This document shows positions 11,974 through 13,236 of a DNA stretch of 14,717 nt, piece by piece. Below the pieces are notes generated by a model. The model saw nothing but the letters and a program-made list of their open reading frames with translations. It searched no databases and had not been told where the DNA came from. The translations under genes were made by a program, and so were the position numbers. The stretch is from Chlamydiales bacterium (GTDB lineage: Bacteria > Chlamydiota > Chlamydiia > Chlamydiales > JBDQID01), in assembly GCA_047611865.1 (NCBI GenBank), contig JBLFWS010000079.1, positions 1 to 14,717 on the forward strand, given 5' to 3'. Numbering within the stretch: position 1 is the stretch's first letter; the number at the start of each line of letters is the position of its first letter.

Positions 11974-13236
11974 TCAATCCTGATGCGCCCGCCTCCTTAC
12001 ACATCCAAAGATCTTTTTCACCGTCCAGATGGTCAGCACAGCTCCCAAGATAATAGGTGCTGCCAGGCTTCCAGTGATTTCGCCTGTCTTCCCGGTAGGA
12101 CCATTTAACTGCATATCATTACTACCTAATAATCTGAAATCGTGAGCTGACCGAGGAAGAGCCATGCCATTGTTCAGACTGATAGATGGATTGAAAACGG
12201 GGTACGACGTTTGCATCAGAATTCCACACTTCCCCCCCTCTTCGTCATCTTTACCCCTCTCCATCAGGATATATCCTTCATTTCCCCATCCTTCTCCCCA
12301 GGAATTTTTTACCTTCCAGTAATCTTTTCCATCCAAAGTGCCATAACCAACAGCTAAAACTCCATGATCGAGGCGGTTGCCACAAGCTGCGGTGAGAACA
12401 CCGTCTTTGTAAAACTGAAAAGCCATTTGATTTGCCTGAATCGCCACAGATACTGGGCCAGAGGATAAAGCTTGCATCAAAAGCTGTGTGCTGTTCGGGA
12501 AGATACGCTGATATCCCAAAAGGTCGTGGGGTTTAATCACAGGCGTACATTCTTCAGCTCGACAAGCATTCTCTGATGCTTCATATGGGTAACCCTCATC
12601 AGAACAGAGACCGTTCTCCTGAACATAAGAAAAGGAAAAGCCCATAAGGCCCCCGTTACAACCCATATTTCCTTGTCCTGAAGAGCAGTCTACAATTTGT
12701 TGTTCAGAAAAGTTAACAAGTTGACCGGTTGCAATTTTGTAACGCCCCTCTAAAGCACCATTAGCAGAAAAAGCATAACACGACCCACAATTGCGTTGAT
12801 TTTTTACCACCGTGACAGCACCAGATTCTGACCAGTCAATGGATTTTGGAAGAGGTTTCTTTTCTACTTTTTCAGCATCAAGAAACTTTATAGCCCCTTC
12901 GGATTTCAAGTGTGAAGTATAGCCAAGGCGATCACTATTAAATTCAGATTGAGATAAATCAGCAAACTCATTTACCTCCATTGTAAAATCAATGTTTGGC
13001 TGTTGATTATGCTTGGTGATGTAAATCAGGTTCTCCCGAAAGATATTGAACCGCTGAGCCTCGCCTGCGTCATTTTTGTATGTTTTATCGAACTTTCCTT
13101 TAAACTCCTGAAACAGACCTTGAATTTTTGCATCTGTCAGATAAGTAGTTTCTCCAAGTCGCTCATCCGATGCTTGATTTAAAGTCTGAGATTTTAAGTT
13201 ATTATCTATGTTTTGGGAGGAGTCATAAATTTTCAT
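11974..13236 (-). CDS. Papain-family (C1A) cathepsin L-like cysteine protease with an I29 inhibitor prodomain and a C-terminal membrane anchor
   Basis: ERFNIN-type [15 protein letters not shown] and VNEFADL prodomain motifs. [18 protein letters not shown] (catalytic Cys), [27 protein letters not shown] (His) and YWKVKNSWG (Asn). Tail [30 protein letters not shown]. Confidence 0.95.

Follow-up and report, generated by a model that had tools for sequence, protein, structure and literature searches.

The protein treated here, P0001, is encoded on a chlamydial contig and resembles several described systems in part. Procathepsin L and other papain-type C1A zymogens (human procathepsin L, 1cs8/1cjl; triticain-alpha, 8zlq; Toxoplasma gondii CPL, 3f75) are 40-49% identical to it, match its model at TM values of 0.87-0.92 by target, and have in common with it the I29 and Peptidase_C1 domains, the catalytic Gln/Cys/His/Asn residues, the structural cysteines, and the proenzyme fold, as modelled for P0001. 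Zymogens of the cathepsin L type are normally activated by acid pH or by another protease. In contrast to these enzymes, P0001 lacks an ER signal peptide or anchor, harbors 41 extra polar residues at its N-terminus and a 73-residue extension at its C-terminus, and is the product of a bacterial gene with a Shine-Dalgarno site.

A papain-fold domain is also present in bacteria of the Spirochaetota, in proteins that are 30-35% identical to P0001 over the mature domain only and whose branch is separated from the P0001 group by more than 3 changes per column in the tree. The one Spirochaetota C1A protein that was scanned has an N-terminal hydrophobic segment and no I29 match. This agrees with the statement, in a previous sequence-only reading of the locus, that bacterial C1A enzymes usually lack I29, as does the association of this domain with four eukaryotic lineages (PMC10380794). 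The C1A transfers described in section 2.4.2 of that source run from bacteria to eukaryotes and from eukaryotes to viruses, and the section contains no eukaryote-to-bacterium transfer of cathepsin L. A literature search returned neither a chlamydial cathepsin L or Peptidase_C1 protein nor a cathepsin transfer from a eukaryote to a bacterium; Files S1 and S2 of PMC10380794 could list one.

Two further systems share traits with P0001. Cathepsin-L-like proteases of giant viruses (GVMAG contigs in IMG/VR; the low-GC metagenome contigs L030, L048, L053, L077, L081) are encoded by intronless genes with I29 and C1A domains, and here too an intracellular parasite of protists has taken the gene from a eukaryote; they form separate clades, comprise about 320-366 aa, and are devoid of a tail-end anchor. 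Transmembrane effectors of type III/IV systems and eukaryotic tail-anchored proteins show, like P0001, a single moderately hydrophobic segment with basic flanks within the last 30 residues and no signal peptide. A short, moderately hydrophobic helix with basic flanks directs eukaryotic proteins to the mitochondrial outer membrane or to peroxisomes. Such a layout is found in the mitochondrial outer-membrane signal of Bcl-xL (PMC2172731), and effectors with transmembrane segments, tail anchors and a layout for host-membrane insertion are described in PMC12981334. The cargo of P0001 differs in being a disulfide-bearing zymogen of the lysosomal type, which is unusual for a protein facing the cytosol.

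A procathepsin-L-like gene resident in a chlamydial genome

The window, i.e. the whole stretch of DNA that was analysed, corresponds to a complete contig of 14,717 nucleotides. It contains an intact ORF of 420 codons on the minus strand (11974..13236) with a procathepsin-L-like product. The features of the locus are as follows:

11974..13236, minus strand: whole gene of P0001, 420 codons and stop (ORF, Pfam, PDB sequence search)
13245..13249, minus strand: Shine-Dalgarno-like GAGGA, 8 nt ahead of the ATG (visible in the sequence itself)
13114..13236, minus strand: residues 1-41, hydrophilic S/N/Q-rich N-terminus, disordered in the model, candidate secretion signal
12940..13113, minus strand: residues 42-99, I29 inhibitory propeptide with ERFNIN-like and GNFD-like motifs (Pfam, motif positions)
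12853..12939, minus strand: residues 100-128, linker between propeptide and mature enzyme, expected processing region (proenzyme alignment; lower pLDDT)
12196..12852, minus strand: residues 129-347, Peptidase_C1 catalytic domain, bearing the structural cysteines and the catalytic residues Gln147, Cys153, His291 and Asn311
12067..12195, minus strand: residues 348-390, lineage-specific linker with relatives detectable in orthologues only
12019..12066, minus strand: residues 391-406, single short hydrophobic segment, predicted C-terminal membrane anchor
11977..12018, minus strand: residues 407-420, basic tail of 14 residues
11917..11957, no strand assigned: perfect palindrome with an 18-bp stem between convergent genes (sequence; repeat copies elsewhere in the genome)

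The start of P0001 can be regarded as fixed, since its frame is open for just 15 codons upstream of the ATG and the orthologues P0002 and P0017 have similar N-terminal starts. The uninterrupted ORF and the GAGGA motif uphold the initial description of an intronless gene with a bacterial ribosome-binding site. A promoter scan gave no sigma-70-like site upstream of the gene on the minus strand. The palindrome is devoid of a T-run, hence no terminator was called in the promoter/terminator scan; it probably serves as a bidirectional transcription stop. The ORFs flanking the gene have no family match in Pfam or NCBIfam, and no chaperone or effector-type neighbour was recognised beside it.

The contig is typical of the genome in its composition, with a GC content of 0.420 (genome mean 0.414, sd 0.013) and a tetranucleotide distance of 0.0063 (median 0.0070). 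The same applies to the gene itself, whose tetranucleotide distance of 0.0213 compares with a median of 0.0224 for random 1263-bp pieces. Two repeat families dispersed in this genome are represented on the contig, one of them directly behind the P0001 gene: copies of the palindrome repeat lie on five other contigs of the same genome, and other contigs match positions 11903-11944. The gene shares the contig with bacterial genes (coaBC, a HAD hydrolase, a PLD, and a group II intron), and homologues of the PLD-like neighbour occur in 7 of 40 further genomes from the order. From an independent 'ice metagenome' run, a 4969-nt contig spans positions 9000-12584 with 0 differences and a 1910-nt contig spans positions 12711-14620 with 1 difference, so both junctions of the gene are bridged. 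The contig is not chimeric; a chimera at this locus had been named as one of the findings that would overturn the reading, and typical composition, dispersed repeats and contigs from an independent sample across both junctions speak to the contrary. A second, decayed cathepsin copy, a pseudogene, resides on another contig (C16) of the same genome.

Enzyme core and terminal extensions

The Pfam matches of P0001 are, as sequence matches, far beyond chance. Inhibitor_I29 (PF08246) is matched at residues 42-99 with an E-value of 2.5e-17 (63.4 bits, cut-off 24.4), and Peptidase_C1 at residues 129-347 with an E-value of 2.4e-71 (240.8 bits, cut-off 20.7), the latter over the full profile (1-220). 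In a PDB sequence search, the proenzymes of triticain-alpha (4e-79) and human procathepsin L (1e-66) were aligned from the propeptide through the end of the mature domain. An ERFNIN-like motif is located at residues 62-77 and a GNFD-like motif, NEFAD, at residues 89-93, which bears out the complete prodomain that had been read from the sequence; the first E of ERFNIN is shifted by one position in P0001 and is in register in P0002 and P0017. Likewise intact is the catalytic set of Gln147, Cys153, His291 and Asn311, all four residues being invariant in an alignment of 35 sequences. The disulfide cysteines noted earlier were located within CGSCY (150-154, including Cys153), VDC (182-184) and GCNGG (192-196); in total, P0001 harbors cysteines at positions 150, 153, 184, 193, 211, 225, 230, 285, 337, and 412. 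The structural cysteines of the papain fold are all kept in the three full-length proteins of the chlamydial type.

One presumed peculiarity did not stand. The CY in place of the usual CW had been put forward as a special trait, but CGSCY occurs in 28 of the 120 best database matches, and 24 of these 28 are not of the chlamydial type. As judged from these sequences, the motif is inherited and is no chlamydial change.

An AF2 model of P0001 shows the proenzyme fold, in which the propeptide covers the active-site cleft, and has a pLDDT of 79; summarised as means of 10-residue blocks, values exceed 90 over most of the I29 and catalytic regions and amount to 60, 48, and 48 for residues 1-30. The best Foldseek matches of this predicted model are the proenzymes 8zlq, 3qt4, 1cs8 and 1cjl, with TM values of 0.87-0.90 by target. 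Judged by its conserved residues, P0001 is likely to be an active zymogen, and its enzyme part is probably an ordinary papain-type zymogen in working order.

The two ends of the protein depart from this pattern. The N-terminus is polar, with 13 S/T/N/Q among the first 30 residues and a 12-residue hydropathy maximum of -0.79 within the first 35. Since no 19-residue window outside the tail exceeds a Kyte-Doolittle value of 0.84, P0001 has no signal peptide, as was read originally. A polar, disordered N-terminus is in itself weak evidence for a secretion signal. At the other end, the roughly 70 extra residues reported before amount to 73 (348-420) past the Pfam domain, comprising the hydrophobic segment 391-406 and thereafter the basic tail. 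P0001 thus shows a tail-anchor layout with a sole hydrophobic segment followed by 14 residues; P0002 and P0017 are laid out alike, lacking a signal peptide and ending in a hydrophobic segment and then KK.

This C-terminal extension is confined to close relatives. A database search with residues 346-420 retrieved the query itself only, and when N-terminus and tail were compared with the entire genome by tblastn, the best non-self E-values, 0.38 and 0.03, were not significant. In a crude screen, 13 of the 2249 ORFs of at least 150 aa in the genome were tail-anchor-like, and no effector family sharing the P0001 tail was seen among these 13.

Two other interpretations of the tail were considered. 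A sorting signal of the sortase, exosortase or rhombosortase type was rejected, as P0001 matches 0 NCBIfam families and has no signal peptide. Chlamydial Inc proteins possess a bilobed hydrophobic domain of about 40-60 residues and no tail anchor; P0001, having one hydrophobic segment of 16 residues, was not classed among them.

Distribution and phylogenetic position

Homologues of P0001 are sporadic in chlamydiae. An order-wide search gave matches at E<=1e-5 in 3 of 401 genomes, with a strong match in this genome only and none in the 400 others. Of 400 genomes scored across the phylum, I29 was detected in one, as against none of 14 controls. Among GTDB species genomes, matches are limited to Spirochaetota at 30-35% identity and one fragment. 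A partial 65% match on an Ekhidna sp. chromosome (L014) is a C-terminal fragment and no complete gene, and was left unused. The orthologues P0002 and P0017 (79% and 49% identical to P0001) are environmental sequences, which may be of chlamydial origin, as suggested by their shared architecture.

In a maximum-likelihood tree of 60 rows (LG+C20+F+G4; supports given as ultrafast bootstrap/SH-aLRT), the four rows of the chlamydial type (P0001, P0002, P0017, and the decayed paralogue) form a clade at 93/91. This clade lies within a 15-row clade (100/99) together with the cathepsin L of Perkinsus marinus and 10 signal-peptide proteins from unnamed organisms, which in turn is nested in a 34-row protist clade at 99/98; the nesting is also recovered in a quick ML tree. 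Nearest in the trees are Perkinsus marinus cathepsin L (P0080) and a group with the CGSCY motif (P0046, P0032, P0035), at a core identity of 50-53%. This unnamed sister group shares the CGSCY active site with P0001 and differs from it at both ends: its members mostly have a hydrophobic, signal-like N-terminus, and their C-termini are either short acidic tails or Cys-rich extensions, a hydrophobic tail occurring in 0 of 10.

An AU test rejects a grouping with the Spirochaetota outgroup, the only other bacterial C1A found outside the protist group (dlnL 8.54, p 0.0153); the tested group was chosen after viewing the quick tree, and a p of 0.015 is not overwhelming. All 15 organism-named rows among the 120 best matches are eukaryotes. 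The expected nesting of P0001 within eukaryotic cathepsin L is supported, with no broad bacterial clade being found, and the proposed horizontal transfer from a eukaryote, probably a protist, is backed by the nested placement, the AU result and the sporadic occurrence in the order. A transfer from a eukaryote to a chlamydia is very likely, and on the sequence comparison the donor was probably a protist.

The immediate, putatively eukaryotic sister group of the chlamydial clade, to which P0036, P0059 and P0121 belong besides P0046 (encoded on an 85-kb contig), is environmental and without a named member. A cluster look-up gave no organism names, a homologue search with P0046 yielded no organism-named member at an identity of at least 56%, an Atlas look-up gave just generic eukaryote and Nucleocytoviricota clusters, and an exact-peptide pattern scan of IMG/VR with P0046, which is a weak test, found nothing.

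Other origins of the gene can be measured against these data. Passage through a giant virus of the shared protist host, instead of direct acquisition from the host genome, is unlikely. An intronless donor copy would ease transfer, gene-dense metagenome contigs of low GC (0.26-0.36) carry intronless I29+C1A genes that are 45-48% identical and have DUF2738 and RING-helicase among their neighbours (10 of 22 scanned proteins without family match), and giant-virus contigs in IMG/VR hold relatives at 33-40% identity; in both trees, however, the protist clade of 34 rows that contains the chlamydial clade excludes the virus-like rows, and the weak peptide scan of IMG/VR did not find the sister group. 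Far less probable is an ancient bacterial I29-C1A gene inherited vertically and lost by most chlamydiae. It would account for a gene compositionally indistinguishable from its genome, but conflicts with the strongly supported nesting among protist sequences, the AU rejection of an outside position, the failure to find a strong homologue in the order's 400 other genomes examined, and the detection of I29 in 1 of the 400 phylum genomes scored. Eukaryotic or viral DNA mis-binned or mis-joined into the chlamydial bin is extremely unlikely: the assembly is a draft of 272 contigs with an estimated contamination of 2.5% and the window is a whole 14.7-kb contig ending in repeats, yet against this stand the genome-typical composition, the genome-specific dispersed repeats flanking the gene, its Shine-Dalgarno site and lack of introns, bacterial neighbours including a PLD with relatives in the order, the independent contigs bridging both junctions, and the decayed second copy on C16.

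Putative destination and role of the protease

The preferred account combines transfer of a protist-type gene with duplication and retargeting to a host membrane, and as a whole falls slightly short of an even chance. A protist-type procathepsin L gene would have entered the ancestor of a small group of environmental chlamydiae by horizontal transfer and been retained, its composition drifting to that of the genome. The gene would also have been duplicated, and one of the copies is by now in decay in this genome. In place of the eukaryotic ER signal peptide, the protein would have acquired the disordered polar N-terminus, and its C-terminus would have been extended by a linker of roughly 40 residues, a short helix of moderate hydrophobicity, and a basic tail. 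A type III secretion system may export the protein unfolded, the C-terminal helix then inserting post-translationally into a host-side membrane, either that of the inclusion or of a host organelle. The I29 propeptide would block the cleft until its removal, upon which the tethered protease would cleave host proteins. Secretion, anchoring in a host membrane and acid activation are steps that P0001 may undergo, as we infer from its layout.

With respect to export, the injectisome component SctJ (TIGR02544) is matched on contig C15 with 164.3 bits, above the cut-off of 161.95, which is exceeded in 0 of 14 control genomes; two secretin matches in the genome lie below the YscC cut-off. A search for the HrpJ family gave no match in any genome, controls included, and is uninformative. 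The architecture of P0001, as deduced from its sequence, fits a tail-anchored effector, and a host-directed function of this kind is a tentative assignment at somewhat less than even probability. A more specific version, in which a stolen lysosomal protease of the host was turned into an injected tail-anchored effector and its ER signal swapped for a type III signal, is doubtful; if true, cathepsin L would sit on a host organelle or on the inclusion, exposed to the cytosol. What speaks against a cytosolic destination is the conservation of the disulfide cysteines, which fit an oxidising compartment better than the host cytosol, the side that a tail-anchored protein would face. Moreover, a zymogen facing the cytosol might stay inactive, since its activation normally requires acid pH or another protease.

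Basic residues flanking a transmembrane helix stay on the cytoplasmic side, a regularity denoted as the positive-inside rule. A protein of the same eukaryotic origin could instead work in an oxidising, extracytoplasmic location, in the periplasm, at the cell surface or in the inclusion lumen, tethered like a type I membrane protein with its basic tail in the cytoplasm or cytosol, and serve nutritional digestion or the remodelling of envelope or inclusion. By this rule, the KK..RRR behind the helix agrees with most of the protein lying outside, and the structural cysteines are all kept in orthologues down to 49% identity. This arrangement is nevertheless rather unlikely, for P0001 has neither a signal peptide nor another N-terminal hydrophobic segment by which 390 residues could be brought through the inner membrane, its start is fixed (15 codons open upstream, similar starts in the orthologues), and no known C-terminal sorting family is matched (NCBIfam 0). 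Proteins with a C-terminal helix and no signal peptide also exist as tail-anchored proteins of bacteria themselves, and P0001 has this layout too; it might therefore remain within the bacterium as a tail-anchored inner-membrane protein, its zymogen in the cytoplasm being latent, of housekeeping function or in decay. The paralogue in the same genome is already a pseudogene, but the catalytic and structural residues are all retained in three intact orthologues, a neutral and reducing cytoplasm hardly suits disulfide cysteines or a propeptide activated by acid, and a tail of this kind, seen in no more than 13 of 2249 ORFs, is too rare for a common housekeeping layout in this genome. Retention of P0001 in the bacterium is consequently quite improbable.

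Eukaryote-like proteins are the main clue to host manipulation by intracellular bacteria, and most of those known are interaction domains. Here, chlamydiae appear to have captured a complete lysosomal protease zymogen of the host type and to have retained it in two or more paralogous lineages, with both targeting ends rewritten and the catalytic machinery left untouched. The transfer would run from a eukaryote to a bacterium, a direction of papain-family exchange absent from section 2.4.2 of PMC10380794. P0001 would thereby offer a natural experiment on the retargeting of a secretory-pathway enzyme after its transfer into a bacterium, and, for the little-known chlamydiae of ice and marine protists, a candidate effector. 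If P0001 is periplasmic or lumenal, the question arises by which route a domain of this size is exported when it lacks a signal peptide; if it acts as an effector at a host membrane, it would represent a new way of re-addressing a captured host enzyme.

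The cathepsin gene and its product

The 420-residue procathepsin-L-like protein P0001 is encoded by a real gene, and the description of its sequence in the sequence-only reading is correct. The gene and protein show the following features:

11974-13236, minus strand: cathepsin-L-like ORF, 420 codons, uninterrupted
8 nt upstream of its ATG, minus strand: GAGGA, seen directly in the sequence
11917-11957: palindrome with a perfect 18-bp stem, just behind the stop codon, between the cathepsin gene and the convergent ORF at 11571-11873
P0001 residues 42-99: complete Inhibitor_I29 (inhibitory propeptide) domain, Pfam, E 2.5e-17
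P0001 residues 129-347: complete Peptidase_C1 domain, Pfam, E 2.4e-71

The I29 domain, catalytic residues, and cysteine motifs listed beforehand were all found at computed positions, and an alignment of 35 sequences shows no variation at Gln147, Cys153, His291, or Asn311. A PDB sequence search returned, among others, triticain-alpha proenzyme (4e-79) and human procathepsin L (1e-66), with proenzyme alignments spanning the propeptide through the end of the mature enzyme. The AlphaFold2 model (mean pLDDT 79, pTM 0.77) is confident for the propeptide and catalytic domain and poor for residues 1-30 and 368-420; its top structural matches are proenzymes (TM 0.85-0.90 by target). P0001 thus agrees with cathepsin-L-like C1A (papain-type) zymogens in all sequence and fold tests except for the signal peptide. 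The enzyme part is a complete, conserved cathepsin L-type zymogen. The tyrosine replacing the usual tryptophan after the catalytic cysteine is present as described, but not peculiar to P0001. It occurs in 28 of the best 120 database hits, including 24 outside the chlamydial type, and was inherited; it did not arise locally.

Residence in the bacterial genome

The source draft genome comprises 3.59 Mb in 272 contigs (95.5% complete, 2.5% contamination); one of them, C79, makes up the window in full. That the locus is a chimera or a contaminant is extremely improbable. Such an origin disagrees with the composition of contig and gene, which is typical of the genome: GC is 0.420 for the contig, and the genome averages 0.414 (sd 0.013); in tetranucleotide profile, the contig lies nearer the genome mean than 92% of 71 similar-length contigs do; the cathepsin gene has a GC of 0.429 and a tetranucleotide distance of 0.0213 vs a median of 0.0224 for random 1263-bp pieces. 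It disagrees as well with the presence on the contig of two short dispersed repeat families of the genome; 5 other contigs carry further copies of the palindrome that follows the cathepsin gene, and 21 carry copies of an intergenic repeat element at 9454-9497. Public 'ice metagenome' runs contain the cathepsin stretch. One 7461-nt contig spans 9000-14620 in two runs that may be source runs, and a third, independent run yields a 4969-nt contig over 9000-12584 (0 differences) and a 1910-nt contig over 12711-14620 (1 difference), which therefore bridge both gene-flank junctions. The sequence-only reading had placed the gene in a bacterial genome, and its continuity with the flanking bacterial genes held: the locus is not chimeric.

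The neighbouring genes are ordinary bacterial ones, a further argument against contamination, and encode an MBL-fold hydrolase, an HI0933-like flavoprotein, CoaBC, a TPR-methyltransferase, a HAD hydrolase, and a TauE-like permease; they also include a gene for a PLD-like protein, of which homologues were found in 7 of the 40 relatives from the order. Further features of the contig are:

77-460, minus strand: 127-aa ORF after the group II intron, no Pfam match
670-914, minus strand: group II intron RNA (Rfam RF02005, 124.6 bits)
5656-6972, minus strand: coaBC, split by an in-frame TAA (6688-6690) with an ATG directly after
10669-11496, plus strand: flanking ORF without Pfam or NCBIfam family
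11571-11873, plus strand: the same
13437-14717, minus strand: the same

The contig starts inside a group II intron mobile element (77-914, minus strand), and the 127-aa ORF resembles the beginning of the protein that such introns encode. The split coaBC consists of an upstream 94-aa ORF with the start of the Flavoprotein domain and a 343-aa ORF with the remainder and the DFP domain; a true gene split, decay to a pseudogene, or an error in sequencing could each account for it. The product of 13437-14717, upstream of the cathepsin gene on the same strand, is E/A/K-rich, repetitive, and coiled-coil-like, and its ORF runs off the contig. Depth at 14539-14717 rises ~12-fold (sequencing run X1), therefore a collapsed repeat is placed at the contig end.

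Relatives, phylogeny, and donor

Among 41 genomes (source plus 40 relatives), no P0001 homologue at E<=1e-10 was found beyond the source genome. At E<=1e-5, 3 of 401 genomes of the order match, source included, the other two weakly (G064 with 37% identity, and G009). Of 400 genomes of the phylum that were scored for the I29 family (one more gave no score), 1 had it, as did 0 of 14 controls. A second cathepsin copy in the source genome (contig C16, 13242-14105; L002 1501-2364) is 58% identical and closest to the database protein P0017; it is overlapped by a 181-aa opposite-strand ORF. With a TAA inside the I29 region, no start codon, and truncation after the KNSW motif, it is a pseudogene (fragment P0051).

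A search of 5.8 billion proteins with P0001 gave 7999 scored candidates, 6478 at E<=0.001, of which the best 120 were listed. Two share its architecture, P0002 (421 aa, 79% identity) and P0017 (425 aa, 49%), both with similar starts without signal peptide and with ends composed of a linker, a hydrophobic segment, and KK. Remaining hits among the best 120 show <=53% identity, and all 15 organism-named rows among them are eukaryotes. A pattern scan with one genome per GTDB species returned seven Spirochaetota proteins (30-35% identity, mature domain only) and one fragment, L014; the one Spirochaetota protein scanned for I29 gave no match. L014 (6190-6795 of an Ekhidna sp. chromosome record) is a cathepsin-L-like C-terminal fragment only, 65% identical over ~55-78 residues; no complete cathepsin gene is present, the surrounding stretch is without other long, clean ORFs, and the fragment has the look of a lone, exon-like piece within a bacterial assembly.

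A metagenome scan yielded mainly 1-2-kb contigs, and also gene-dense, low-GC contigs with neighbours pointing to giant viruses; more distant relatives lie on IMG/VR giant-virus contigs. Intronless, cathepsin-L-like I29+C1A genes of ~320-366 aa were seen on these low-GC, gene-dense, giant-virus-like contigs (metagenome loci L030, L048, L053, L077, and L081; IMG/VR loci L095-L106). For DNA viruses, the text of section 2.4.2 in PMC10380794 names cathepsins F and B and short bacterial C1A enzymes, with cathepsin L absent.

For phylogeny, the region matching P0001 residues 37-349 was used (>=270 residues, no stop), keeping 118 of 126 proteins and 93 of 104 loci. Clustering at 68% identity left 96 representatives, to which four sister-group rows, P0051, and four Spirochaetota rows were added for a 105-row quick tree (LG+C20+F+G4). 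Here, the four chlamydial-type rows (P0001, P0002, P0017, P0051) group together (SH-aLRT 95) inside a 15-row clade (SH-aLRT 99) that also contains the cathepsin L of Perkinsus marinus and ten unnamed proteins, surrounded by marine protist sequences including dinoflagellates; virus-like contigs form a separate clade. L004 (598-1899, minus strand; G064 contig C57, same order), a 433-aa Peptidase_C1 ORF with no Pfam I29 match, falls among protist sequences on a very long branch (2.84). Its product is without signal peptide, has odd Cys-rich and hydrophobic insertions within the catalytic domain, and closes with a Ser/Ala-rich stretch and a hydrophobic terminus similar to a GPI signal; either a separate capture event or contamination with eukaryotic DNA may explain it.

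A careful tree of a 60-row subset, picked by hand and omitting the long-branch L103 and L004, gave these supports (ultrafast bootstrap/SH-aLRT): chlamydial clade 93/91, (P0001, P0002) 100/100, (P0017, P0051) 97/91, and 15-row clade 100/99. The ML phylogeny bears out the expected nesting within protist cathepsin L, with 99/98 for the enclosing 34-row clade. Placement in a broad bacterial clade, which would contradict a transfer, was not recovered: forcing the chlamydial rows to group with the Spirochaetota outgroup lowers the log-likelihood by 8.54 units and is rejected (p-AU 0.0153), for a group named after the quick tree was seen, though matching the refutation test of the sequence-only reading. 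Since the source genome holds one member per sub-lineage, a duplication preceded the split from the P0002 and P0017 carriers; this early duplication, taken with the fully matched composition, means that the gene has long been resident.

The cathepsin gene was thus very probably transferred from a eukaryote. The ten-row sister group (e.g. P0046, P0032, and P0035) has no named member and lies on metagenome contigs up to 85 kb long. It looks eukaryotic by its sequences, because the N-terminus of most members is hydrophobic and signal-like, and Cys-rich extensions occur at the C-terminus of some. The nearest named sequence to the chlamydial clade is that of the alveolate Perkinsus marinus, and the best guess for the donor is a protist in or near the alveolates; a giant virus may have served as intermediate. 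Section 2.4.2 of PMC10380794 describes transfers of C1A genes between prokaryotes, into eukaryotes from bacteria, and into DNA viruses from either eukaryotes or bacteria; the section lists no eukaryote-to-bacterium cathepsin L transfer. According to the same article, I29-bearing lineages derive from a eukaryotic progenitor (PMC10380794). No report of a chlamydial cathepsin L was found in the literature searched.

Targeting and a working model

The targeting parts are unlike those of all sampled relatives and common to the three full-length chlamydial-type proteins. Hydropathy bore out the proposed hydrophilic N-terminus without signal peptide and the hydrophobic C-terminal segment with basic tail: a scan of the N-terminus found no hydrophobic segment, and residues 391-406 are the sole hydrophobic stretch of P0001, followed by [14 protein letters not shown], a basic tail. 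No C-terminal sorting domain was recognised (NCBIfam). Inc proteins carry a bilobed hydrophobic domain; P0001 has none, and an Inc identity was ruled out.

Lacking a signal peptide, P0001 is unlikely to take the Sec route. A polar, disordered N-terminus is the typical look of type III substrates, and that of P0001 is a candidate signal by which the protein would be exported; the injectisome ring protein SctJ is encoded in the source genome (above curated cut-off). Effectors that insert into host membranes are described with a single short, moderately hydrophobic segment with basic flanks near the C-terminus (PMC12981334), and a comparable layout is given for tail-anchored proteins in PMC2172731. 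The segment of P0001 is likewise single, short, moderately hydrophobic, and flanked by basic residues within the last 30 residues, by which the protein might insert after delivery and become tail-anchored on the inclusion or a host organelle. Alternatively, P0001 could reside in an oxidising compartment (periplasm, cell surface, or inclusion lumen) with its basic tail cytoplasmic. All structural cysteines are conserved, which fits such a compartment better than the cytosol and is the main counter-argument to injection; this location is nevertheless rather unlikely, as it offers no way to export the 390-residue N-terminal domain. The missing signal peptide, the type III-like N-terminus, and the tail-anchor layout favour, tentatively, a protease that is injected and then held by a tail anchor on the inclusion or on an organelle of the host. 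Its activation in acidic host compartments, as proposed in the sequence-only reading, might follow. The re-addressing of the enzyme is evident from its sequence, and we infer its destination and function. The gene belongs with the eukaryote-like proteins of intracellular bacteria and with captured cathepsins.
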